Origin: an uncultured Elusimicrobia bacterium
GTDB taxonomy: Bacteria; Elusimicrobiota; Elusimicrobia; 2-02-FULL-39-32
Direction: 5' to 3'
DNA length: 64,000 nt
Assembly (NCBI GenBank): GCA_964523525.1
Contig: CAZFYO010000003.1
Location: 92,911 to 156,910 of the forward strand
Shown: positions 30,910-64,000 of the stretch, piece after piece
How the letters are laid out: each line of letters starts with the position of its first letter
Position numbering within the stretch: position 1 is the stretch's first letter
The notes under the pieces: generated by a model
The model's input: only the letters and a program-made list of their open reading frames with translations
What the model was told of the DNA's origin: nothing
The model's database searches: none
Translations under genes and position numbers: made by a program

Positions 30910-31767
30910 TTATGTGTGGATCCGCGCGGCGCGCGTGACGAAGGTCTTTCCCCGCGGTTCGACCATCAGCAGATGGCCGTTGGGGACGTCGCGCCAGGCT
31001 CGGGCTCCTGACCGGTCCATCGGCTCGGAAGCGAACGCGACGGCGCCTTTTGACTTATTGTAACACATTTGGAAGTAGGGCCTTTTCGGCCAGCAGAAGG
31101 AACGGGCCTTGGATGGAAAATAGCTGCATTGCGCCGCCAGCATCTTTCCATCCGTGACAATGACGTTCAATCCCTCCGCAAAACTCCGGTACTTCCGCCT
31201 GGACTTGGGAATAGAGTCCCATACCTTTTTCATTTGTCTCCGCGCTTCAATAAAGATGCGCGGCCAATCCGTCTTGACGCCCTTTTTAGCGTGTTCTTCC
31301 CAAATTTTGACGATCAGCAGGAACAAAACCTCGCTGTCGTTGTTGCCGGTGCGGTATTTTTTGAAACGTCCCAGAGTTTTGGCGACTTCATTCGGTATGT
31401 TCAGCGTCCCATTATGGATAAAGGTCAGGTTTTTATATCGAAAGGGCTGGGTGTGCTTGCGCCCGATCAGTTTGCGATGGGGAAGCTTGTCGGGATTGGA
31501 GGCATAGCGGATATGGGCGAGGATCGCGACTGGTTTTATATCCGCCACCTGCTTTTTGAAGAGGGCCTTTTCCCTAAAGACGGGTTTGCAGGACTTGAAC
31601 GTCCGCCAATCAGCTTCACTGCCTTCCTTATATGTGATGCCCCAACCATCCTTTTGCCGCGATTTGGGGTTCCAATCGCTTTGCTTCAGAAGGGAGAAGG
31701 GCGCGTCGAGCAGGTAACGGGATGGATTGCGCGGCGCGACGGAAATCTGGGCGAAAAGCCGGCACAT
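30910..31767 (-). CDS. Class II (Ntn-type) glutamine amidotransferase-like protein (YafJ-like)
   Basis: Cys at position 2 (MCRLFA…), typical of Ntn amidotransferases; 285 aa. Confidence 0.6.
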   Translation of the reverse strand: MCRLFAQISVAPRNPSRYLLDAPFSLLKQSDWNPKSRQKDGWGITYKEGSEADWRTFKSCKPVFREKALFKKQVADIKPVAILAHIRYASNPDKLPHRKLIGRKHTQPFRYKNLTFIHNGTLNIPNEVAKTLGRFKKYRTGNNDSEVLFLLIVKIWEEHAKKGVKTDWPRIFIEARRQMKKVWDSIPKSRRKYRSFAEGLNVIVTDGKMLAAQCSYFPSKARSFCWPKRPYFQMCYNKSKGAVAFASEPMDRSGARAWRDVPNGHLLMVEPRGKTFVTRAARIHT

Positions 31768-31826
31768 GTCGATGAAATCGTATCATAAATGAAATTGATT
31801 TTGTATGATGTGGCCGAGGCGCCGAC

Positions 31827-48217: not shown

Positions 48218-48286
48218 GAGAATAAATATATATCATTTTTTGCTGCACCGTGATAGAATATGCCGAACGTGCGGGGGCGCGAAAAT

Positions 48287-50203: not shown

Positions 50204-51100
50204 ATGTCCAACGAGTTGATTGTAGTGACGGCGGCGACGGGGAATATCGGAAGCAAACTGTCCGGGTTGCTGCTGGCGAAGGGAAAAAAGATCCGGGTCG
50301 TGGGGCGCGACGCTTCGAAGCTCGAAACGTTCAAGAAGAAGGGCGCCGAAGCCGCGGTCGGGAACGTGGAAGATCAAGGATTTGTCGAGAAGGCGTTTGC
50401 CGGGGCCGGAGCGGTCTTTACGCTCGTGCCGCCCAATTACGGGACGCCCCAGTTTCGCGCTTATCAGAATAAGGTAGGCGATATTTACGCGAAGGCTCTT
50501 GAAAACTCCGGTGCAACGCACGTGGTAAACCTCAGCAGCGTTGGGGCGCACCTCCCCGAGAAAGTGGGCCCGATCAAGGGGCTTTACGATATCGAGCAGA
50601 AGCTGAACCAGTTAAAGGCGAATGTGATCCATCTGCGCCCGACGTTCTTCATGGAAAACACGCTGATGAACATCGGCCTGATCAAGCAGATGGGAATTAA
50701 CGGAACGCCGATGAAGGCCAGCCTCAAAGTTTCCATGATTGCCACCGCGGATATCGCGAAGGCGGCGGCGGAACGGCTAACGAATCTGAACTGGACGGGA
50801 AAATCGGTGCTGGAGCTTTTCGGCCAGCGGGACCTGACCATGGCGGAAGTGACGGGCATCATCGGAAAGGCGATCAATAAAAGCGATCTAAAGTACGTCG
50901 AGTTTCCTTACGCGGACGCCGAGAAGGCGCTGCTGGGAATGGGGATGTCGGCGGATGCCGCCAAAAACATGGTGGAGATGTATCAGGCCTTTAACGACGG
51001 GATCGTGAAGCCGACGCAGTCGCGGAATGCCGAAACTACGACGGAAACATCCATCGAAAAGTTTGTTGAAACTGTATTCGCAAAAGCGTATCTAAATTAG
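50204..51100 (+). CDS. NmrA-like NAD(P)H-binding protein
   Basis: Rossmann motif (IVVTAATGNIGSKL) and NmrA-like length; adjacent to TetR, a common regulator-target pair. Confidence 0.8.
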   Translation: MSNELIVVTAATGNIGSKLSGLLLAKGKKIRVVGRDASKLETFKKKGAEAAVGNVEDQGFVEKAFAGAGAVFTLVPPNYGTPQFRAYQNKVGDIYAKALENSGATHVVNLSSVGAHLPEKVGPIKGLYDIEQKLNQLKANVIHLRPTFFMENTLMNIGLIKQMGINGTPMKASLKVSMIATADIAKAAAERLTNLNWTGKSVLELFGQRDLTMAEVTGIIGKAINKSDLKYVEFPYADAEKALLGMGMSADAAKNMVEMYQAFNDGIVKPTQSRNAETTTETSIEKFVETVFAKAYLN

Positions 51101-51184
51101 AGAGCTTTGAAGTTATCTTTATAAGGAGGTGAGCATTATGGGTCCGAAAAGTCCTTGTGGTTGCTAGTTCTGAATTATCAGTAA

Positions 51185-51231
51185 AAAAGAGAAAGGCCTG
51201 ATCGCTAACGCGATTACGGCCTTTCTCTTTT
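51185..51231. terminator. Bidirectional intrinsic-terminator-like hairpin between the NmrA-like gene and aceK
   Basis: 14-bp stem (AAAAGAGAAAGGCC / GGCCTTTCTCTTTT) with inner ATCGC/GCGAT stem; U-rich 3' flank on both strands; the aceK stop codon lies in the loop. Confidence 0.5.
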
Positions 51232-52974
51232 GAGGCGGGACGGTTCCTTGTAGGGGAGTATTTCCGCGATTTCGCCGGCTGCGAGGCGCTTCTGGAGGTC
51301 CTGCCAGTAGCGCACCGTGAAGAGGTCGCCGTGGAGCGGGTCGAAGACCTTGCGCATCCTCGGGTCGAGTCCGATGAACGTCCTGAACTCCTGGGGAAAG
51401 ATGTCGGCATCGCCCACGTAGAACCAGGGTTCGCTTTCCAGCTCCTCGCTTTCGTCCCGCGCCGCCGGGACCTCGCGGATATTGCAGTCCGTCAGCAGGC
51501 ATAGCTCATCGTAGTCGTAAAAGACCACCCGTTCGTTGCGGGTCACGCCGAAATTCTTCAGCAAAATGTCGCCCGGAAAGATGTTGGCCTTGGCCATGTC
51601 CTTGATGGCGCTCCCAAAATCCACCGCCGCATCCCGCGCCAGCTCTTCCGGCGCTTCCTTCAAGTAAATGTTGAGCGGCACGACGCGGCGCTCCGTATAG
51701 AGATGGCGGATGATCACGGTGTCGCCGGAAATCGAGACGGATTTGGCGGCCTGTTGAGTGAGCTCCTGCAGAAGCTCTTCAGTGAAGCGGCTCTTATCGA
51801 ACTCCAAATGTTCAAATTCTTGCGCATCCACAAGGCGCCCGGCGCGGTCGTGCTGGAACACGAGGTGGTACTTGGCCAATACCTGCTGGCGCGACGTGCG
51901 TTTTGTGTAACTGAATTTGTCTTTAATGATTTTGAAAACTACGTCATAAGATGGCAGCTCGAACACGGTCATCACCATGCCCTTTTCGCCCGGGGAGATG
52001 CGGAATTTATCTTTTGATTCCTGAAGGTGGCGGTAGAGGTCGCGGTAGAGCTCGGTTTTTCCGTGCTTGTTGAATCCGATGGAAATGTAGAGCTCGGCTT
52101 TGGGCTTTTGCGGCATTATAGACTGCAGGAAATCGACCAGCTCCCGGGGCTTTTTGACCTTCACGTGAAAATAGGAGCGCGTGAAGCTGAATACGATGCT
52201 GACTTCGGAATCATTGAGCAAAACCGCGTCCACCAGGATCTGGCCCGCAGGGTTGCGGAGCGCCAACACCAGCGGCAGTTCGCCTTTGGCGGCGCGGATT
52301 TTACCGACGATAAATGCGCCGTTGCCGCGATAAAAGACGGGCTTGATCACGTCGATCTGTTCGAACTTTGCCGAGCCGAAACGGGATTGGAGCTGCTGTT
52401 CAATGCGCCGCGCGCACAGTTCCGCGTCTCCGCCGATATCTTCGAATGGCGCGTTGAATTCGTAGCGTTTCAGAAGCTCTATCAAAAGGTTCGGCAGGGG
52501 CCCGTTGCTGGGATAGGAACGGTAAATGGGTTTTTCGCTCTGGATCGGCGGCGTATCGAGCTCGGAGTCGAGATACTCCGCGCCGGGCTCGGTGCCAATC
52601 ACCACCATGACCTTGCGCAGGGTGGAGTTGTAAAACGTTTTGGCCAGTTCGATATCCTGCCGCGCCGCTACGAGAGCGGTAAAATTCATTTTAGCCTGCG
52701 ACCAGAGGCGGCTGTCGTTGTGTCCGCTGCCGACCAGCTCCTTGACCTTGGGGATCAGCTGGTTGATGATCTTGGTATAGAGGTCGAGGCGCTCGATGGC
52801 GTCGCGCTGCGCGCCGGTCCAGTCGCACTTCTCGAAACGGGTGCGGGCCCGGGAGGTGATCTCCGTAAATTTTTCCTGATAGATGTTGAACGCTTCGAGG
52901 ATGAGCGCGGCGCAGCCGGCGGCGGCGGCCGCGCGGGCGGCGGGGTCGGAGGAGGAGGACGGTTCGCGGCTCAT
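51214..52974 (-). CDS. aceK: Isocitrate dehydrogenase kinase/phosphatase
   Basis: AceK-family similarity over 586 aa (…NIYQEKF…, kinase-like C-terminal region); divergent from aceB. Coordinates are taken from the ORF track; my own base indexing disagreed by 1 nt near 52.92 kb. Confidence 0.85.
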   Translation of the reverse strand: MSREPSSSSDPAARAAAAAGCAALILEAFNIYQEKFTEITSRARTRFEKCDWTGAQRDAIERLDLYTKIINQLIPKVKELVGSGHNDSRLWSQAKMNFTALVAARQDIELAKTFYNSTLRKVMVVIGTEPGAEYLDSELDTPPIQSEKPIYRSYPSNGPLPNLLIELLKRYEFNAPFEDIGGDAELCARRIEQQLQSRFGSAKFEQIDVIKPVFYRGNGAFIVGKIRAAKGELPLVLALRNPAGQILVDAVLLNDSEVSIVFSFTRSYFHVKVKKPRELVDFLQSIMPQKPKAELYISIGFNKHGKTELYRDLYRHLQESKDKFRISPGEKGMVMTVFELPSYDVVFKIIKDKFSYTKRTSRQQVLAKYHLVFQHDRAGRLVDAQEFEHLEFDKSRFTEELLQELTQQAAKSVSISGDTVIIRHLYTERRVVPLNIYLKEAPEELARDAAVDFGSAIKDMAKANIFPGDILLKNFGVTRNERVVFYDYDELCLLTDCNIREVPAARDESEELESEPWFYVGDADIFPQEFRTFIGLDPRMRKVFDPLHGDLFTVRYWQDLQKRLAAGEIAEILPYKEPSRLKRERP

Positions 52975-53130: not shown

Positions 53131-54732
53131 ATGCCAAACGACCCCTATTCCGCCCTCGGAGTCCGGTTCACGGAACCGGTCGCGCCGGACCAGCAAAGCA
53201 TCCTTTCGGAGGCCGCGGTCTCCTTTTTAGCCAAACTCGTCCGCGAATTCGGGCCAAGGCGCGCGGAGCTGCTGCGTAAACGCACCGAACGGCAGATGCG
53301 GATTGACGACGGCCTGAGGCCTTCATTTCTGCTGGAAACCCACGGCGTGAGGGAAGGAAACTGGACCTGCGCTCCCATCCCGAAGGATTTGATGGACCGC
53401 CGGGTTGAGATCACCGGTCCCACCGACCGCAAGATGATCATCAACGCGCTCAATTGCGGCGCCAACGTCTTCATGGCGGACTTTGAGGACTCGAACGCTC
53501 CCACCTGGAAGAACATGATCCAGGGCCAGATCAACCTGCGCGACGCGGTCCGCGGCAAAATCGATTTTACCAGCCCCGAGGGCAAGGAATATAAGCTTAA
53601 ACCCAAAACCGCGACCCTGATGGTCCGGCCGCGCGGCTGGCACCTCGAAGAAAAGCACGTGCTTGTCGACGGAAAACCGGTCTCGGCTTCACTTTTTGAT
53701 TTTGCGGTCTTCTTCTTCCACAACGCGCAGGCGCTCATCGATAAAGGCACCGGCCCTTACTTTTATCTGCCCAAAATGGAGAGCCATCTGGAAGCGCGGC
53801 TCTGGAACGACGTATTTTTGCGCGCTCAGGACGAGTTGAAGATTCCGCGCGGCACGATCCGCGCGACCGTGTTGATCGAAACGATCCTGGCGGCCTTCGA
53901 GATGGACGAAATCCTCTATGAGCTGCGCGACCATTCCGCCGGGCTCAACTGCGGGCGATGGGACTACATCTTCAGCTTCATCAAGAAGTTCTGCGCCTAT
54001 CCCGATAATATATTCCCCGACCGCGCCCAGGTCGGCATGACCACCCATTTCCTCCGTTCCTATTCCAAACTGCTCATTCAGACCTGCCACCGGCGCGGCA
54101 TCCACGCGATGGGCGGCATGGCGGCGCAGATTCCCATTAAAAACAATCCCGCGGCCAACGACGCGGCCATGGCCAAGGTGCGGGCCGACAAGGAACGCGA
54201 AGTCACCGACGGCCATGACGGCACCTGGGTGGCGCATCCCGACCTCGTGGGCATCGCCAAAGAGATTTTTGACAAACATATGAAGGGCCCGCATCAAATT
54301 GATAAAAAAATCACCGATCTGAAGGTGACGGCCGAGGATTTATTGATGGTTCCCAAGGGCGATATCACCGAAGCAGGGCTGCGCACCAACATCGACGTGG
54401 GTGTGGCGTATCTCGAAGCCTGGCTGCGCGGACAGGGCTGCGTTCCCATCTACAATTTGATGGAAGACGCCGCGACCTCCGAGATTTCTCGGGCGCAGGT
54501 CTGGCAGTGGATCCATCACCGGGCCAAAATGACCGACGGGCGGATGGTGACCGCCGAGCTGTACCGTTCGCTGCTGAAGGAAGTCATTGAAGCGGTGCGC
54601 TCGCATCTGGGCCAGGAAAAATTTGAGCAGAGCAAATTCGCCTTGGCCAGCCTTCTTTTCGAAAAGATGGTGACGGCCGAACACTTCCCGCAGTTTCTGA
54701 CGCTGGAAGCCTATGGCAAACTCGAGGGATAA
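53131..54732 (+). CDS. aceB: Malate synthase A
   Basis: Malate synthase A family similarity across 533 aa (…[22 protein letters not shown]…[40 protein letters not shown]…). Confidence 0.9.
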
Positions 54733-54736
54733 CTCC

Positions 54737-56035
54737 ATGAACGAATCACAGCGGATCGCGCAGGACTGGAAAAGAAATCCCCGTTGGAAAGGAATCGTTC
54801 GCAATTATTCGCCTGCCGATGTACTGCGTTTGCGCGGGTCCATGAAGATTGAGCATACGCTCGCGCGGCGCGGAGCGGAAAAATTTTGGAAGCTGCTGCA
54901 TTCGGAGCCCTACATTCACGCTTTGGGCGCCATGACGGGCAACCAGGCCGTCGAGATGGTGCAGGCGGGGCTGAAAGCGATCTATTTGAGCGGCTGGCAG
55001 GTTGCCGCCGACGCCAACAATACGGGGCAGATGTATCCCGACCAGAGTTTATATGCCGTGAGCTCGGTGCCCGAGAAGGTGCAGGCGATCAACCGCGCGT
55101 TGCAGCGCGCCGATCAGGTTTGGCACCTCGAGCGGAAGTCCAAGATCGACTGGTTTGCGCCCATTGTGGCCGATGCCGAGGCTGGGTTTGGCGGGGCGTT
55201 GAATGCCTACGAGCTCATGAAGGCGATGATCGAAGCGGGCGCCGCCGCGGTTCACTTTGAAGACCAGCTCGCCAGCGAAAAAAAGTGCGGACACATGGGC
55301 GGCAAAGTCCTCGTGCCCGCGCAGGAGTTTATTCGCAAACTCGAGGCGGCGCGCCTCGCTTCCGACGTGCTCGGGGTCCCGACTTTGATCGTGGCGCGCA
55401 CGGATGCCGATGGAGCCAAGCTTTTAACCAGCGATATCGACGAGCGCGACCAGGAATTCATGACCGGCGAACGGACCGCGGAAGGGTTTTACCGCATCAA
55501 GGCCGGCGTGGACTGCGCCATCGCGCGCGGCGTCGCCTACGCGCCCTACGCGGACCTGGTCTGGTGCGAAACCTCCAAGCCCGATCTGCATGACGCCAAA
55601 AAATTCGCGGAAGGCGTGCTCAAAAAGTATCCCCGCAAGCTGCTGGCCTACAACTGTTCGCCTTCCTTCAACTGGAAATTGAACCTGAGCCCGTCGCAAA
55701 TCGCAAAATTCCAACAGGAAATCGGCCGGATGGGTTATAAATTCCAGTTTGTGACGCTCGCGGGCTTCCACGTGCTGAACGCGGGCATGTTTGAGCTGGC
55801 CTCCGGCTACAAAAAGGCCGGCATGGCCGCCTACTCCAAATTCCAGGAAAAAGAATTCGAGATGGAAAAGAAACAGGGATTTGCCGCCGTCAAACATCAG
55901 AGTTTCGTCGGCGCGGGCTATTTCGATGAGATTCAAAACGTACTGACCGGCGGCCAATCGTCCACAAAGGCGCTCAAAGACTCCACCGAGGAAGACCAGT
56001 TCAAGCCGGGTCAGAAGAAAGGCCGGCGCAAGTAA
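54737..56035 (+). CDS. aceA: Isocitrate lyase
   Basis: Isocitrate lyase active-site region (KKCGHMGGK) and family similarity; start at ATG 54737, 5 nt after the aceB stop. Confidence 0.9.
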
Positions 56036-57169
56036 GTGACGTCAAAAATTTCTTCCTTTAACCCTCCTATCCGCACCCTCCTGGGGCCCGGACCCTCCAA
56101 CCTGCACCCGCGCGTTCTGGCCGCGATGGCCAAACCCACGATTGGGCACCTCGATCCCGAGTTTATCCGCATGATGGACGAGCTGCAGCTGCTTCTGCGC
56201 GACGCTTTTCAGACCCGGAATGAAATGACGATGGTCGTCTCCGGCCCCGGGTCGGCCGGAATGGAAACCTGCTTCGTGAATTTGATCGAACCCGGCGAGA
56301 AAGTGATCGTCTGCCAGAACGGCGTCTTCGGAGGCCGGATGAAGGAGAACGTCGAACGCGCGGGCGGAACCTGCGTTTTGATCGAAGACCCCTGGGGCCG
56401 CGCGGTGGACCCGCAAAAGCTCGAGGACGCGCTCAAGAAAAACCCCGACGCGAAACTGGTCGCTTTCGTCCACGCGGAAACGTCCACGGGCGCGCTGAGC
56501 GACGCGAAGACCCTGGCGCAGATCGCGCACAGCGCGAATTGCCTCGTGATCGCCGATACCGTGACATCTTTGGGCGGCGTTCCGCTTCTGGTGGACGAGT
56601 GGGAGCTGGACGCGGTCTATTCCGGCAGCCAGAAGTGCCTGTCCTGCGCTCCGGGACTGTCGCCCATCACGTTCAGCGAGCGGGCCATGAAGAAAGTGAA
56701 GGGACGCTCCGGCAAGGCGCGCAGCTGGTTCCTGGACCTGAACCTCGTCACGGCCTATTGGAACGCCGGGACAGGGGCCGGCGGCAAGCGGGTCTATCAC
56801 CATACCGCTCCGGTCAACGCTCTTTACGGGCTGCACGAGGCGCTGGTTCTCCTGCAGGAAGAGGGGATCCAAAATTCCTGGGCTCGCCATCAAAAAAATC
56901 ATGAAATTTTGAAAAAAGAGCTGGCCGCGCTGGGCATGACGTTCTTCGTGCCCGAGAAAGAGCGGCTGCCGCAATTGAACGCGGTCGTGATTCCCGAGGG
57001 AAAAGACGACGCGCAGATCCGTTCCCGCCTCCTGAACGAGTTCGGCATCGAAATCGGCGCGGGGCTGGGCGTGCTCGCCGGAAAAATCTGGCGTATCGGC
57101 CTGATGGGCTACTCCTCCAACCCCGAAAACGTCAGGCACCTTAAAGAAGCGCTGAAGAAACTGATTTGA
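56036..57169 (+). CDS. Class V aminotransferase (alanine/serine--glyoxylate aminotransferase-like)
   Basis: PLP fold-type I class V features (…FVHAETSTGAL…VDEWELDAVYSGSQKCLSCAPGLS…); GTG start abutting the aceA stop. Confidence 0.8.
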   Translation: MTSKISSFNPPIRTLLGPGPSNLHPRVLAAMAKPTIGHLDPEFIRMMDELQLLLRDAFQTRNEMTMVVSGPGSAGMETCFVNLIEPGEKVIVCQNGVFGGRMKENVERAGGTCVLIEDPWGRAVDPQKLEDALKKNPDAKLVAFVHAETSTGALSDAKTLAQIAHSANCLVIADTVTSLGGVPLLVDEWELDAVYSGSQKCLSCAPGLSPITFSERAMKKVKGRSGKARSWFLDLNLVTAYWNAGTGAGGKRVYHHTAPVNALYGLHEALVLLQEEGIQNSWARHQKNHEILKKELAALGMTFFVPEKERLPQLNAVVIPEGKDDAQIRSRLLNEFGIEIGAGLGVLAGKIWRIGLMGYSSNPENVRHLKEALKKLI

Positions 57170-57197
57170 TGGCACGCAAAATGAAGGTGAAATCTTG

Positions 57198-58292
57198 ATG
57201 GCGCGCGAAATCCGGCCCGCTCTGAGAACGGGCGTCAGCGTCAAAGCCCAGCTGATCGCCCGGCTGCGCTTCAGCCACGTCCTCACGCTTTCCGAGAAGG
57301 AATTTGCCCGGATGATCAGCGACATCGAGAATGATCCGCTTTTCCAGAAATTTCTATACCCCAAAGATTCCGGACCCAAGGCCATTTTCAAGCGGCGCGT
57401 CCCGCACCAGCGCCTGTCCCCCGCCTTCTACGAAGCGAAGGACGAGATCAGCGCCGGCGCGGAAGGCGTGGACGTTGAGAATATCCTGGAGCAGCACCGG
57501 GGAGTGATCGATTTGATCCGCAAAATCGGCCAGGAGTCCTTTGAAAAGCATTTCCTCTACAAGGAGGGGACCGAATCCGCCGCTTCCATCGCCGAGAAGT
57601 GCGGGGTTTTCCCGGAGGACGTGATGAGGGTTCAGGCGGCGGTCACCCAGCTTTCCGTGCATTCGGAGTTTTTCAATCCGACCACACTGCCGGCCGAAAC
57701 GGGCCTGCGCTACACCCTGATCGCCCGGATCGACCCCGATGAACAGGGCTCGTTCTGGATCTCGTTCACGTCGCCGCACCTGGCGGCGGGGCGTTACGTC
57801 ATCAATCCGGAGCGCGTGGACGCGCTCAAAAAAGATTTGGCCGCCTCCGAAAGAAAAGCGGTCACGAACCTGATTCAGAAGCTGGAGCTCATCAACCTGC
57901 GGCAGGACACCCTGCACAAGATGCTGCAGGAAGTCCTGGTCCGGCAGAAAGGCTATCTGAGCTCCAACGACGCGTCGCGCCGCCTGCCGCTTTCCCAGCG
58001 CGACATGGCCGCCCACCTCGGCGTTGCCGCCTCCACGGTTTGCCGGGCGCTCTACGGAAAAAGCGTGCTCGCTCCCTGGGGCCGGGAAATGCCGCTCAAG
58101 GATTTCTTCGTCAACAAGAAAAACGCCGCCGAGGAGTGGGTCCGGCAGATCCTCGAGGAAATGCCCGAGGAAAAAAGGGACCAGTTGAGCGACAATGATT
58201 TGCGCGGCCTCCTCGCCCAGCGTTTTCGGTGCAAGGCGTCCCGCAGGTCCGTCAATCTCTATCGCCGCGCGGTTGAACAAAAATCAAAGTAG
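57198..58292 (+). CDS. rpoN: Compact sigma-54-like factor (RpoN family), about 365 aa
   Basis: Region-I-like N-terminus (VLTLSEKEFARMISDIENDPLFQK), sigma-54 HTH (LPLSQRDMAAHLGVAASTVCRAL…LKDFF) and RpoN-box-like C-terminus (SRRSVNLYRRA). Shorter than typical RpoN. Confidence 0.65.
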   Translation: MAREIRPALRTGVSVKAQLIARLRFSHVLTLSEKEFARMISDIENDPLFQKFLYPKDSGPKAIFKRRVPHQRLSPAFYEAKDEISAGAEGVDVENILEQHRGVIDLIRKIGQESFEKHFLYKEGTESAASIAEKCGVFPEDVMRVQAAVTQLSVHSEFFNPTTLPAETGLRYTLIARIDPDEQGSFWISFTSPHLAAGRYVINPERVDALKKDLAASERKAVTNLIQKLELINLRQDTLHKMLQEVLVRQKGYLSSNDASRRLPLSQRDMAAHLGVAASTVCRALYGKSVLAPWGREMPLKDFFVNKKNAAEEWVRQILEEMPEEKRDQLSDNDLRGLLAQRFRCKASRRSVNLYRRAVEQKSK

Positions 58293-58466
58293 TTTCTCCG
58301 ACGGAAAAGTGCCTCCCGCGGCCCCAAATTGTTACACATTATTTACATTAACTTCAGGTCTAATTTAACTCCCGACTGATATACTTTTGGCTCTGACGCA
58401 GAGCTTAAATAAGGAAAGGAGAACCTCCTGAAAGAGGCCAGCCTCGGGAAAAACCGTCCAACCGCC

Positions 58467-61400
58467 GTGAATCGGGGCCGCAAAGCGGTCGCCTGCGCTC
58501 TCGTGCTGTCCCTTTTACAGTCCGTGCTGCTCGCCCCGGCGGTTCAGGCGGGGTTGTGGCAGGACCGCCGCGAAGCGGCGAAGTCGCTTCCCTTGCTGGC
58601 GCAGCTGCCGGCGGACCTGGCCCCTATGGGTCCGTCGAACTGGCAGATGGACGCGCCAGCCAGCCCGCTCGCTTCGAGCCTGCAGAATTTCGCCGCTCCT
58701 TCCTGGCTCCGAAACCTTCCCCTCCAATACGCCAGTCTGAGGCGTTTGTCATTCCCGCCCGGCTGGAACCCTTCCGACCCCATCGTCATCCATATCCAGG
58801 ACGTGCACCAGAACGCCGAGGCGCAGGAGAACATCAGCCTGACGCTGCGTGAGCTGATCCGCGGGGGCCGGTTGAACCTGGTCGCGCTCGAAGGCTCGTT
58901 TGAAACGATGGATTTCAGCCGGTTCCGCTCCTACGAGGACGCGGATTCGGTGCGAAAGGTAACGGACTATCTGCTGCGCGAGGGGAAAATTTCCGGCGCG
59001 GTGCATGCCGCGTTCGCCAGCGAGAAGGCCCCGCCCAAATTTGCCGGCGTCGATGACCGCGAGCACTATTTCGCGCATGTCGATGCATACAAGAATTCGC
59101 GGGGCGCGGCGCAGGAAGTGAAAAAGGCTCTGGCGTCCCAAATGCAGGCGCTGGAAACGGAGAAAGCCGCGAAACTGAACCCCGATCTCAAAGCATTTGA
59201 CGCCGCCGTGCGCGATTTCCGCGCTGAAAAAACGAAGCTGGGCGCTTACGTCCAGTTTTTGACGGCCCGAAGCAAGAAGACCCTTCCCGAGGTCCAGAAA
59301 TTCCTGAAAGCCTTCAAAGCCGAATCGAGCCTCGATTTCGCGCGGGCGGAAAAAGAGCGCGGCGAGATCATCAACAAGCTCGTGAAGAACCTCGGCCGCG
59401 ATCAGGTCAACGGACTTTTGAATGCCAGCCTCTCTTATCGCGTGGGCCGAACGCGCCACGGCGATTTCTACGTCTATCTCCGCGATCTTTGCGCCAAGAA
59501 CGGCGTCGAGTTTGCAAAGTACGCCGCGATGGACGCCTATCTCCAATATGTTTTGTTGTCGGACAGCATCAACGCCGAGAAGCTGCTGCATGAAGTGGAT
59601 TCAATGGAAGCGGCGGGCTATCAGGCGCTCGCCAAAACCCCGCAGGAAACCATCCTGATTAAAAAATCCAAATGGCTTCATCTGGCGGACAAGCTGGTGG
59701 ATTACTCGCTGTCTCCCAAAGAGTGGAAGGAATATCACTCGATGCGGGACTTGGGAGATTCCATGCTGCGCGATCTGGAGCCTTTCGAGGGATTCTTTAA
59801 AGAGGCCCTGATTCGCGATGAGGCGATGGCCGCCAACTTCATCCGCTCCATCGGGACGGATAGGAATGCGGCGGCGGTGCTGGTGACCGGCGGATTCCAT
59901 TCCGAGGGCATTGAAGAGCGTCTGAAACGCAAAGGGATCGCGGTGTTGACGCTGGCACCCAAAATCAGCAAGGTCGAGACGAAAGACGGCGCGGCGTACC
60001 TCAACGTTTTCACGCAGGAAAAAACCCCGCTCGAAAAACTCTTCCAGGGAGAAAAGCTTTTCGTCACTCCGGAAGTGTTTTCACATTCCACGGAATTGTC
60101 TGCTGCGGCCTTTATCGCCCTCTTCAAACGGACAGTTGAGTCAGCCAACGACGCATTCCACCGGCTGAGCGGTTCAAAAGGCGCCGCCTACAATATCATT
60201 TCGGTTGAGCTCACTGAGGGCATCGTCGGTACATTGGAAGGGCCGCAGGGCTCGGAGCGCTTCAAAATCCAGGCCAACGATGAATCCATCGAAAGCGTTC
60301 AATTCATTCCGTTTTCAGGCATGCGCGGCGTCATGGGTCTTTTCCTGGGGAAGGCCAAAGCCATGGGCCTGTACGGCGAAAAATTATGGACGTTTGTCAG
60401 CCGGATCAATTCCGCGCCGATGTCGGTCAAAATGGTGATGGCCGCCGCGGTCGCCCTGCCGCTGTCGTTCCTGTTCAATGAAATGGCGCCCGGACTGGTG
60501 ATGATGGCCACGGTCGGAAGCTCGATGGGGCCCGGCGAGACCGGAAACGAAGCGCGCGCCAAAGTGCTCTGGCACATCGGCTTCGCGCCCGTGCCGAACG
60601 CGCCGGAACGGACCCTTTTTCTGCGAAGCGAAGCGGAGGCCGCCCGCCTCATGCCGGTTCCCCCGGCGGACACGTGGGTCGAAGTCCGTTACCTGGGAGA
60701 GCGGTCCGAATTCCTGCGCATGTCCATGTACCGGCGCGATCCGGGTGAGACCGAGGACCAGTTTTGGGGACGGCACATGCGCGATTCCGAGGAACGGAAA
60801 CTTTTCGACCTGTACCTCACCATCGATCCGTCGTTTTCCGACACGGTCTGGCTGAGTCCGGGCAAGGCGTATCCGGCGCTCCGCGAATTGTTCGGCCCCG
60901 GCGGCTATTCCAGCGAGGCCTGGATACGCGACACGCTCCTGCCCTGGCTGACCGAGCGCGGGTTCGTGGAAGTAAAAGTCGGCCTGCAGGAATCCAGCGA
61001 TAAGCTTTTCAAATCCCTGGGGTTCACGAAATTCGGCGGAGGGACGATGCGAAAAGTCCTGAACGCCAAGTTAAGGCGGCGTTCGGCGCGTTCTCTGACT
61101 CGGGCACCCGCGCCCTGGACGCTCGAAGAGCGGAGGAAGGACGCCATCCTGCGGATATTGAACGGTAGGACGGAGTCGGCCAACATTGTCCAGCTGTACG
61201 CGGAATTCGCGAAGGACCCGGCCTTTGAAGACGCGACCCAATCCGAGTTCGCCGACCTGGTGATGCGGACGCCCGCGATCCTTGACCACCCGATGCTGAG
61301 CCGGTCCCGGAGCGGGGCGTGGCACGTAGGTGATATGGCTCAAATCGTGGCCAAACAGCTGGTGTCCTCAAGCGACCGGCTTGTTTCCAGGTTTACGGCC

Positions 61401-64000
61401 GATTTAGCAGAACCCCTGAGGCAGGTTATTCTCTCGGCCCTTGCGAAATCAAGAGAAGCCGGGAGTGGAGGATATCAGACTTTTATCGATAACTTAACTT
61501 TTGAGGATCGTCCGATAAGCGAAGAAGAATATATGGATATGCTCTATACGTGGTCTGAAAAGTCCACTGTTGAATTTAACAGCGATCTTCAAAAAAGAGT
61601 TGAGGACAGCATTGTCAGGCAATACCAGCGCAATGGGTCAAAAGTAGAGTCGAGGAGAGGGGCTCAGGCGCGAGTATCCGGCAAGGGAAATTATTCGATG
61701 ACGGTTCTGATCAGCCAGCAGGGTTATCCCGCTCTGACATTCAACATTCTCTTGTCCAACAGAAGGAGGTTTTTCGCGGATCCGGACAACCATATTCTCG
61801 CCCAGCATCGTCCTATATCGTTCGGCGCTTATAATTACTTGCTGCTCCTCCAATCAAGGGTTTTTGATCTGGATGACGCGATACTTGATCTTGTTATCAA
61901 GCATGAGATTGAAGAGATGATGGTAAAACACCGGTCCAGGAACCGGATCGGCGCGGCGGAGGCTCACCGCCTTGCGCTTCAATCCTCGGGGGATGAGCGC
62001 TCTGTTGGAAAAGTGCAGGCCGCGCTTCGCGCACAGAATCAAAAAGACGTTTCCGTCCGCAGGGTGCAAAAATTCCTGGGATCCGCGATCGACGAATCCT
62101 TCATCCGGGAAAATGTGGATGCGCTGGAATTGGTGTGCCTGGACGCTGACGACTATCTGGAACTCCTGCCTTCGGATTATTTGGAGGTTAAGAAATATGC
62201 AGCTAACGTCAGTCCGATTCATTTGATGCTGGATTTGATATTTCTAAATTGGAAAGACCCCGCGGAGCCTGCCGAGTTCATCGCGAATTTGCCCCGCATT
62301 CAGCGGCTTTTGGGGAAGGATTGGTTTACGCACAATTGGACCAATCTGGTAACGCAGTACAGCCAGATGGGCGCGGAGCAATTCAATGGAATTTTTGAGC
62401 GTCAGAGGAACGATCCTTGGATCAGGAATAAAAGCCGGGACTGGCTGAGAGAGTATTTTCTGGACATTCCCAATATCCGCCCCATGAAGGAGGAAAAGGA
62501 CATTGAAGCCGTTTTTGAAGGCGGCCTGGAAAACAGCGGATCCGAATTTGACGACTTAAGATCCGCGATCCGGTCCTATCCCGATATATTGACCGAATCC
62601 ATCAAGGCAATTTACAGGGTTCAAGCGGTCGATTTCAGGACGGATGACATCGTTAAGGTAGGGGTCAAAAAAATCGGCGACGGCACCAGCAACGCGGTTT
62701 TCCTGCTGACTGAAATCGTTTTGTCCAATGGCAGGGTGGTTTCCCAATATCCGATCGTCATGAAGGTCAGCAAGGAATCGACCTATGATCTGACCCATCA
62801 GGGAATGCAGCAGATCGTTCAGGCCGCGCGGGAGCTTGCCGCTCAGGATCCTCCGCTGTATCCCAGGATCGGGGGGCAGTGGATTTTTGACTATCTGCAT
62901 GAGTTTTGGATTGTGAGCGAAGAGTTTGTCCCGGGTCCCACGCTTTGGAACGAGATAGCAGGAGTCCGGATGGATCCCGATCTCGGCGATGCCGAAAAGG
63001 AAAGAAGGATCATCGATCTCCTTGCCAGGCAGTTCGACGTGTATCTTCGAGCCTGGAAAACGTGGAACGAACGTTCCGGGGCCCCGCATTGGATCGAAAG
63101 CAAATTTATCGGCGATCCCAATTCTCTTAATATCATCGGAAGAATGATTGTTGACCTGAACTCGCTGCAGGAGTCCATGACACCGGCCGAAATCGTCGAA
63201 CAGATGATACCGGAGGATGTTCTGGCGGATTCGTCTCCACTGTATTCAATATTTGTCCGGCTGGCCCAGGATATCATGGGCGGAGACAGCGGCCGCCAGT
63301 TTCTGTACAGCTCGCACAATCTCAAAATTTTGAGCGCGCTGGAAGAGTATGAGGAATCCGAGGCCGAAAATGACGGCGGCATTGAGCCCGTTAACTCTCT
63401 CGCCTACTGGATCGCCGATCTGGCGCGCTTGAGCCCGTCCAAAGCGAGAGCGGTCGGCCTCGCGGGGCTGGCCGTGGAAATCCCGGCGCTGATCGCGGCC
63501 GGACTGGTGTTGCCGTTCTTCGGCATGGCAGCCTTCCTGGGAGTCTTCGCGGGCGCCCACATCCTCCTGGAAAAAATTTCTGCCGGCCGCCAGAACCGCG
63601 GCCCCCCGACTTTACGCCAGACGGCCGCCCAAATCATCGCGTTCCTTCCGTATCTGCTGATTTCCATCGCAGGAATTTTTTCCGACTCCATTTTAAGTCA
63701 GTATTTCCTTCCCGCTCTCACCGCGGTCTTCGTCCACGCGAAATTTGACCTGCCACTGATCACCCGGCGTTTCCCCAAAGCCGTTTTCAGCCCTGCCGCG
63801 GCCGCCGGGCCTGCGATGCGCCTGTCGGGACAGGGATTGACGGCCGCGCAGCACGTCGTGGTCAACGAAGCGGTCGCAGGATTTTTCAACCGTCCGGTGA
63901 CGGCAAGTGAGCGGCGCATGCTGATCCCAAGAACCCAGGACTACCGCGCTCTGGATCCCACCGGCGCGCTGGCGGCGGAAGGCGTCCGCATCTATGCCCT
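58467..64000 (+). CDS. Giant secreted/membrane multidomain protein, 5' portion (frame open to the window end; more than 1,840 codons in window)
   Basis: Frame 0 has stops at 58377-58379 and 58410-58412 and then none to position 64000 (checked by hand at several coordinates). Not in the track, presumably because no stop lies in the window. Strong SD AAGGAAAGGAGA at 58411-58422; candidate starts CTG 58428 or GTG 58467; signal-peptide-like N-terminus (NRGRKAVACALVLSLLQSVLLAPAVQA). Confidence 0.75.
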   Translation, partial: MNRGRKAVACALVLSLLQSVLLAPAVQAGLWQDRREAAKSLPLLAQLPADLAPMGPSNWQMDAPASPLASSLQNFAAPSWLRNLPLQYASLRRLSFPPGWNPSDPIVIHIQDVHQNAEAQENISLTLRELIRGGRLNLVALEGSFETMDFSRFRSYEDADSVRKVTDYLLREGKISGAVHAAFASEKAPPKFAGVDDREHYFAHVDAYKNSRGAAQEVKKALASQMQALETEKAAKLNPDLKAFDAAVRDFRAEKTKLGAYVQFLTARSKKTLPEVQKFLKAFKAESSLDFARAEKERGEIINKLVKNLGRDQVNGLLNASLSYRVGRTRHGDFYVYLRDLCAKNGVEFAKYAAMDAYLQYVLLSDSINAEKLLHEVDSMEAAGYQALAKTPQETILIKKSKWLHLADKLVDYSLSPKEWKEYHSMRDLGDSMLRDLEPFEGFFKEALIRDEAMAANFIRSIGTDRNAAAVLVTGGFHSEGIEERLKRKGIAVLTLAPKISKVETKDGAAYLNVFTQEKTPLEKLFQGEKLFVTPEVFSHSTELSAAAFIALFKRTVESANDAFHRLSGSKGAAYNIISVELTEGIVGTLEGPQGSERFKIQANDESIESVQFIPFSGMRGVMGLFLGKAKAMGLYGEKLWTFVSRINSAPMSVKMVMAAAVALPLSFLFNEMAPGLVMMATVGSSMGPGETGNEARAKVLWHIGFAPVPNAPERTLFLRSEAEAARLMPVPPADTWVEVRYLGERSEFLRMSMYRRDPGETEDQFWGRHMRDSEERKLFDLYLTIDPSFSDTVWLSPGKAYPALRELFGPGGYSSEAWIRDTLLPWLTERGFVEVKVGLQESSDKLFKSLGFTKFGGGTMRKVLNAKLRRRSARSLTRAPAPWTLEERRKDAILRILNGRTESANIVQLYAEFAKDPAFEDATQSEFADLVMRTPAILDHPMLSRSRSGAWHVGDMAQIVAKQLVSSSDRLVSRFTADLAEPLRQVILSALAKSREAGSGGYQTFIDNLTFEDRPISEEEYMDMLYTWSEKSTVEFNSDLQKRVEDSIVRQYQRNGSKVESRRGAQARVSGKGNYSMTVLISQQGYPALTFNILLSNRRRFFADPDNHILAQHRPISFGAYNYLLLLQSRVFDLDDAILDLVIKHEIEEMMVKHRSRNRIGAAEAHRLALQSSGDERSVGKVQAALRAQNQKDVSVRRVQKFLGSAIDESFIRENVDALELVCLDADDYLELLPSDYLEVKKYAANVSPIHLMLDLIFLNWKDPAEPAEFIANLPRIQRLLGKDWFTHNWTNLVTQYSQMGAEQFNGIFERQRNDPWIRNKSRDWLREYFLDIPNIRPMKEEKDIEAVFEGGLENSGSEFDDLRSAIRSYPDILTESIKAIYRVQAVDFRTDDIVKVGVKKIGDGTSNAVFLLTEIVLSNGRVVSQYPIVMKVSKESTYDLTHQGMQQIVQAARELAAQDPPLYPRIGGQWIFDYLHEFWIVSEEFVPGPTLWNEIAGVRMDPDLGDAEKERRIIDLLARQFDVYLRAWKTWNERSGAPHWIESKFIGDPNSLNIIGRMIVDLNSLQESMTPAEIVEQMIPEDVLADSSPLYSIFVRLAQDIMGGDSGRQFLYSSHNLKILSALEEYEESEAENDGGIEPVNSLAYWIADLARLSPSKARAVGLAGLAVEIPALIAAGLVLPFFGMAAFLGVFAGAHILLEKISAGRQNRGPPTLRQTAAQIIAFLPYLLISIAGIFSDSILSQYFLPALTAVFVHAKFDLPLITRRFPKAVFSPAAAAGPAMRLSGQGLTAAQHVVVNEAVAGFFNRPVTASERRMLIPRTQDYRALDPTGALAAEGVRIYA

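Follow-up and report, generated by a model that had tools for sequence, protein, structure and literature searches.

In bacterial leaders a sequence that resembles a Shine-Dalgarno (SD) element does not always initiate translation, the STAB-SD of Bacillus thuringiensis cryIIIA being a non-initiating example, and at activator-dependent promoters phased direct repeats can replace the −35 hexamer, as in the pho boxes of PhoB. Both cases bear on the locus described here, the start region of a giant gene in 64,000 nucleotides (nt) of DNA from an uncultured Elusimicrobia bacterium (contig CAZFYO010000003.1; the whole stretch is called the window). The closest described systems are the near-cognate start codons found behind strong or extended SDs in Escherichia coli infC and pcnB (AUU) and in Staphylococcus aureus infC, ccpN, citZ (AUA) and cvfC1 (AUU) (PMC13009471). 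As in starts of the infC, pcnB and ccpN type, the window gene has a weak codon, CTG 58428, optimally spaced from an SD of unusual strength that has no canonical start within its reach, and the expected effect, reduced translation initiation, would be the same. It differs from the validated cases in that the codon is CUG, that it is a candidate drawn from sequence alone, and that an in-frame GUG 13 codons further on could substitute for it, because the N-terminus is a cleaved signal peptide.

The SD core AAAGGAG contains seven of the eight bases of the optimal Elusimicrobia SD, AAAGGAGG (PMC10783764, where SDs are reported to be used by ~46% of Elusimicrobia genes). Its duplex with the anti-SD is worth −9.0 kcal/mol, the third best of 41 starts (40 window genes and this site), which bears out the original prediction of a very strong SD in the 12-mer AAGGAAAGGAGA just past an in-frame TAA. 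The same prediction held that no canonical start stands at the right spacing, and there is indeed no ATG, GTG or TTG in any frame between 58423 and 58440. At a workable distance the three frames offer no start-like codon but CTG 58428, and direct reading places it in frame and 5 nt from the 12-mer, as had been stated; its spacer of 6 nt from the SD core falls within the 5–9 nt expected of a near-cognate start. No start codon in any frame would allow the SD to serve a small out-of-frame open reading frame (ORF). The hexamer AAGGAG is not enriched across the window (37 found against 29 ± 5 expected), and each of the seven other copies that we judged to lie outside the long ORFs on the gene strand (2120, 10069, 50193 and 51123, and on the minus strand 46699, 30903 and 25617) has an ATG 5–11 nt downstream. 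No other window gene was found to have an SD followed by a near-cognate codon at its 5′ end.

The 39 nt between CTG and GTG 58467 look like coding sequence. They have a GC content of 0.62, whereas the 39 nt in front of the other window genes average 0.43. Scored by codon log-likelihood, frame 0 gives +2.45 and the two other frames −10.5 and −0.2; on this scale real N-terminal codons have a mean of +1.9 and upstream regions one of −10.4. Across 79 loci of the family to which the giant gene belongs, the GC content of positions −25 to −1 minus that of the gene averages −0.14 and is at least 0 in only 3% of SD-less starts; in the window this difference is −0.25 for CTG and −0.01 for GTG. CTG is followed by a codon for lysine, the residue that most often comes second in the family (25 of 79 starts). 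CTG lies 42 nt from the −10 box, as is typical of the SD-led class of the family, and GTG 81 nt. A rough E. coli-type energy estimate based on start-site energies and codon efficiencies would favour the CUG site ~2- to 40-fold.

We compared ~100 related loci and aligned the upstream DNA of the relatives. The alignment gave a family-specific upstream module with the consensus TTTACAA-N4-TTTACAA-N-TTCTTAAGG-N3-TCTTAA (= TTTACAAnnAnTTTACAAnTTCTTAAGGnnnTCTTAA), that is, four elements ~11 bp apart. A position weight matrix (PWM) built from 37 of the related loci has a single match in the window, starting at 58331 and scoring 18.7 bits, while the next best on either strand scores −6.8. Across 102 loci, with a threshold of 15 bits, it matches the gene strand 87 times and the other strand 3 times, and for 71 of the matches a family ORF follows directly. 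In at least 20 Elusimicrobia metagenome-assembled genome (MAG) assemblies the module goes with a single paralogous gene family, and it is presumed to be a binding array for an activator or alternative sigma factor.

Counted from the start of the module, 57 of 66 loci have a −10-like hexamer at +48 or +49, and the TATACT of the window, at +49, is also the commonest form in the family (TATACT 12, TATAAT 9, TAGAAT 7). An extended −10-like element, TGATATACT, had been proposed at 58377–58385; the element is there and its −10 box sits at the family-conserved offset, but the TG extension, judged by eye, is not conserved. A consensus promoter scan of 57800–58900 found no −35 hexamer (TTGACA-like, 16–18 bp upstream of the −10), and the family consensus has instead TTAAGG and TCTTAA ~19 and ~10 bp from the −10. 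Judged as a sigma-70-type promoter, the site thus has a TAnnnT −10 at a conserved position and no −35, the place of which appears to be taken by the module; the lack of a −35 implies an activator or an alternative sigma factor. Like the pho-box promoters, it has direct repeats with an 11-bp period directly upstream of a good −10 and no canonical −35 at 17 ± 1 bp. Unlike the pho box, to which they are unrelated, the repeats read TTTACAA twice and then CTTAAGG and TCTTAA, and are tied to one Elusimicrobia gene family. A sigma-54 promoter was considered, an RpoN-like gene lying directly upstream, and rejected: by inspection, TGGCTC at 58388 has no GC at +12, so that GG-N10-GC is absent, and no RpoN-like gene was found in the flanks of the other family loci examined. 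The call of a promoter made up of the module and the TATACT −10 is strongly supported by this family comparison.

When start codons were chosen by rule, 65 related loci fell into three groups: 25 (~40%) in which the start codon lies 4–12 nt (mode 6) after the −10 hexamer, 16 with a leader and an SD (21–130 nt from −10 to start, median ~50), and 24 with a leader and no SD of at least four bases (mostly 13–38 nt, with the start at least 73 nt after the −10 in 3 of the 24). The first geometry is that of leaderless genes, which a statement in PMC4007540 puts at 60% of Deinococcus deserti mRNAs, and the family genes that show it are probably translated from leaderless mRNAs; among them are loci L018, L028, L031, L033, L047, L088, L091 and L100, each with ATG or GTG 4–12 nt after the −10. 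Such relatives go far toward explaining why 62 of 79 family starts have no SD, and because of them the transcription start site (TSS) can be predicted ~7 nt after the −10 box. The window gene differs: there is no ATG, GTG or TTG in 58390–58398, so its mRNA should have a leader, of ~35–75 nt. Since the module and −10 are conserved in the family and unique in the window, the SD would lie inside the predicted transcript. A TSS downstream of 58428 had been named as grounds for abandoning CTG; the predicted site, near 58392, is upstream of both the SD and CTG. The whole leader folds no better than shuffled sequence (z 0.0 to 0.4), on which ground we rejected a bridging hairpin that would bring the SD close to GTG (a split ribosome-binding site), and no Rfam family matches 58200–58700 at E up to 1.

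Two further arrangements were seen in relatives. Loci L081 and L095 have a 7-codon mini-ORF (ATGTACGGAAACCGGATTCCCTAA and ATGTATACGACAACCCCCCGATGA) soon after the −10, whose stop codon shares bases with the main ATG (TAATG and ATGA); initiation coupled to an upstream ORF (uORF) is one possible reading and coincidence another. In locus L051 (3958–3980) the sequence GTG-GAG-GCT-CTT-CTG-AAG contains GGAGG, a 5-nt spacer and CTG-Lys four codons past a GTG, and the CTG is at the modal distance of the family, 31 amino acids (aa), from the cleavage motif; as a second SD, CTG and Lys arrangement it is ambiguous.

GTG 58467 had been described as the first canonical start, with no good SD, and this holds: it is 45 nt downstream of the SD, and its own SD duplex is worth only −3.3 kcal/mol. 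The GC content of positions −25 to −1 is 0.64. With a local minimum free energy (MFE) of −15.8 kcal/mol, where window starts average −8.0 ± 4.2 (z ~ −1.9), GTG belongs to the most structured class. With no SD, no leaderless position and no coupling to a uORF, it fits none of the three initiation modes inferred for the window and the family.

A signal-peptide-like N-terminus with an AVQA-G site had been expected from either start, and both candidates do share the end ...AVACALVLSLLQSVLLAPAVQA/GLWQDR (...LLAPAVQA/GLWQDR, the stroke marking the predicted cut). The n-, h- and c-regions, assigned by eye, read NRGRK / AVACALVLSLLQSVLLA / PAVQA-G with small residues at −3 and −1, the layout of a signal peptidase I (SPase I) substrate. 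Homologues have in common a hydrophobic N-terminus and the motif A-x-A/x-[LF]-W-x-[ED]-R. N-terminal length was tried as a discriminator between the two starts and proved uninformative, since the family range is 20–41 aa (median 32, 79 loci) and includes both 28 and 41. As the predicted cleavage is after AVQA (58550), the same mature protein would be produced from either start, and the choice between CTG and GTG therefore concerns mainly the level of expression and not the function of the protein.

These observations suggest the following sequence of events. Transcription would be driven by the module and the TATACT −10 and would probably start near 58392, giving a leader of ~35 nt before CUG. 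The 30S subunit would bind the SD and so place CUG 58428 in the P site, where it would be read by initiator tRNA as formyl-methionine, probably with low efficiency, which may in addition hold down the output of a protein that is very costly to make. A minor second start may be provided by GUG 58467, and either product would carry a Sec signal peptide cut after AVQA.

Several points weigh against CUG as the start. In E. coli it has 1–2% of the activity of AUG, where GUG has at least 10%, and 99.95% of annotated bacterial starts are ATG, GTG or TTG (bioRxiv 10.1101/063800). Initiation complexes of E. coli discriminate against CUG (PMC11497404), and the four mapped non-canonical starts of S. aureus, all of which have extended SDs, include no CUG (PMC13009471). 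An SD of this kind would turn up by chance in ~2% (exact hexamer) or 8–12% (energy) of 75-nt leaders, and the in-frame CTG at the right spacing adds only a factor of ~0.1 (an estimate from codon frequency), CTG being common; the SD-CTG pattern is real and unusual, yet on its own, in one gene out of ~50, it could still be due to chance. The composition tests rest on 39 nt. No SD of four or more bases is present in 24 of 40 leadered relatives, including L001, L004, L007, L010, L017 and L074, which form the subfamily with the signal peptide most like that of the window gene. The 41-aa signal peptide that CTG would give is as long as any in the family, whereas that from GTG has a textbook 28 aa. 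Finally, relatives in the collections searched are at most 48% identical, too distant to show conservation of CTG.

The strongest rival explanation is translation only from GTG 58467, with AAAGGAG as a chance purine run or as a non-initiating leader element (a standby site or a STAB-SD-like stabiliser of a very long mRNA). We give it a substantial chance of being right, though one short of even. GTG is a canonical codon used by 8 of the 79 family members, its signal peptide has the textbook form MNRGRK, h-region and AVQA, and about half of the window genes have no SD, much as in Elusimicrobia at large. As in cryIIIA, the 5′ leader contains an SD-like sequence that precedes the canonical start by tens of nucleotides and has no canonical codon behind it; unlike the STAB-SD, it is followed at ideal spacing by an in-frame near-cognate codon and then by a coding-like interval, and it comes from a different phylum. 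Against GTG alone stand its structured context and its upstream GC difference, which is in the top 10% of the family and ~top 3% of SD-less members, and the rarity of starts as far from the −10 among SD-less leadered relatives. It also leaves unexplained the coding-like composition, the open frame and a CTG-AAA at ideal spacing, and only 1 of 79 relatives has an orphan 6-mer SD in front of its start.

To weigh the two starts we used rough estimates of our own: a prior for CUG of 5e-5 to 2.5e-4, a probability of the pattern arising by chance under GTG of 4e-4 to 2e-3, and likelihood ratios of ~3 for composition, ~3 for the second codon, 1–2.5 for leader length and 2–3 for the implausibility of the GTG context. 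The resulting posterior odds for CUG are ~1:2 to 3:1. On this basis a CUG start is plausible and slightly favoured as a candidate of a known phenomenon, and we put at about even the chance that the region is the promoter, leader and start of a gene for a giant secreted or membrane-anchored protein with CUG 58428 as its main start. A fuller picture, in which a stable CUG start with a compensating SD acts as a brake on synthesis, downstream of an undescribed dedicated promoter module in a family whose copies switch between leaderless, SD-led and possibly uORF-coupled initiation, is rather doubtful as a whole.

Much less probable is that 58428 was ATG until recently and that an A-to-C change crippled the start, so that the gene is now weakly expressed from CUG, GUG or both, or is starting to decay. 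A former ATG would account for the strong SD, the ideal spacing, the lysine second codon and the coding-like 39 nt, and it predicts the same sequence as a stable CUG, but more than 1,860 codons of the frame are uninterrupted and their GC content at third positions (GC3) is a normal 0.70, the base is the same in two run assemblies, and no relative close enough to reveal an ancestral ATG was found. A regulatory hairpin that sequesters the SD (thermosensor or riboswitch-like) is very improbable: AGGAG 58417–21 can pair with CUCCU 58425–29 over 5 bp, a hairpin also picked up by a terminator scan of the minus strand, but at −5.1 kcal/mol (z −0.44 against shuffled sequence) it is weaker than the SD:anti-SD duplex, and Rfam offers no match. 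An error in sequencing or assembly, by which one base change would turn an ordinary SD-6-ATG-AAA start into the present one, is likewise very unlikely, since contigs assembled independently from the separate runs SRR16481186 and SRR16481187 (Logan) are 100% identical to the window here.

Table 1. Features of the start region of the giant gene (window positions)
Feature	Position	Strand	Details
Upstream module	58331..58368	+	PWM match; GTTACAC 58331–37, TTTACAT 58342–48, TTCAGG 58353–58, TTTAA 58364–68
−10 box TATACT	58380–58385; element TGATATACT 58377..58385	+	TGA in front (TGn extended form); fixed offset from module
Predicted TSS, ~58392	58390..58396	+	Predicted from leaderless geometry of relatives
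In-frame TAA	58410..58412	+	Closes the frame upstream; overlaps first SD-like AAGGA
SD AAAGGAG	58415..58421	+	Core of AAGGAAAGGAGA 58411–58422; second AAGGA 58411–15
CTG, candidate near-cognate start	58428..58430	+	In frame; 6 nt past GGAG, 5 nt past the 12-mer; followed by AAA (Lys)
GTG, first canonical in-frame start	58467..58469	+	Start chosen by automatic gene caller on Logan contigs
Predicted Sec-type signal peptide	58428..58550 (41 aa from CTG) or 58467–58550 (28 aa from GTG)	+	From translation; h-region AVACALVLSLLQSVLLA; predicted cut AVQA/G, Gly at 58551
Predicted mature giant protein	58551..64000, past window end	+	~450-aa N-terminal domain with conserved HIQDVH...EAQ...LEG...GGFH, then hydrophobic segments and a long uncharacterised region

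The frame of the giant gene is open on the plus strand from 58413 to beyond 64000, the end of the window, which has an overall GC content of 57.5%. By homology the gene is a member of an Elusimicrobia-specific, multi-copy family of signal-peptide proteins: it has the N-terminal domain (HIQDVH/GGFH) as well as the upstream module. A protein database search returned hypothetical proteins of Elusimicrobia with 24–46% identity and E-values of 1e-127 to 1e-24, the top relatives all being from Elusimicrobia MAGs. Scanning one genome per GTDB species gave 372 relatives with several copies per genome (among the listed loci, seven each in assemblies JANQER01 and JBJXGI01), and Joint Genome Institute (JGI) metagenomes gave 21 more; none of these three sources contained a relative more than 48% identical. 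Exact-protein look-ups of neighbouring genes found the identical locus in only two Logan contigs, SRR16481186_18333 and SRR16481187_66924, which match the window over 54198–61292 and 56648–61292 respectively and show no strain variation. Because 54198–61292 is identical in these contigs, the window organism should be present in both runs.

No Pfam or NCBIfam family reaches threshold for the giant ORF; the sole hint is of the Tiki/ChaN/erythromycin-esterase superfamily, with ChaN/Tiki PF04187 scoring 17.1 bits against a cut-off of 27.7. An AlphaFold (AF2) model of the first 600 residues has a predicted local distance difference test (pLDDT) score of 65.7 and gives no significant match to PDB folds in Foldseek (EreC at rank 14, E 0.5, template modelling (TM) score 0.16–0.22); the N-terminal domain likewise has no match among PDB sequences. 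The 5′ neighbours encode malate synthase, isocitrate lyase, a class-V aminotransferase and the short RpoN-like protein (57198–58292, +, 364 aa). In the last, only the sigma-54 DNA-binding domain is matched (76 bits, where TIGR02395 requires 277), and residues 1–216 match no family.

Elsewhere in the window, in the gap between the convergent genes 50204–51100 (+) and 51214–52974 (−), a near-perfect extended SD, TAAGGAGGTGA, is followed after 6 nt by an ATG and an ORF of fewer than 20 codons (51122–51160, +), which could encode a leader peptide or be a very small ORF missed by annotation. The sequence TGATANNNT occurs 23 times across the window against 9.2 ± 2.9 expected. Instances include TGATACGAT (31777–31785, −), 9 nt before ATG 31767 (−), and TGATAGAAT (48251–48259, +), which is 9 nt before GTG 48269 and abuts ATG 48260. 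The SD-less genes at 31767 (−) and 48260/48269 may be leaderless, the latter starting at either 48260 or 48269.

If CUG 58428 is used, it would be among very few natural bacterial CUG starts, and from a barely studied phylum, and it would illustrate how gene callers limited to ATG, GTG and TTG can misplace such starts. The most reusable results are the family module, which lay outside the original observation, and the largely leaderless layout. The module and its fixed −10 allow the TSS of dozens of uncharacterised Elusimicrobia genes to be predicted, suggest that many of them are leaderless, and point to a regulator that would control a whole paralogous family of large secreted proteins.

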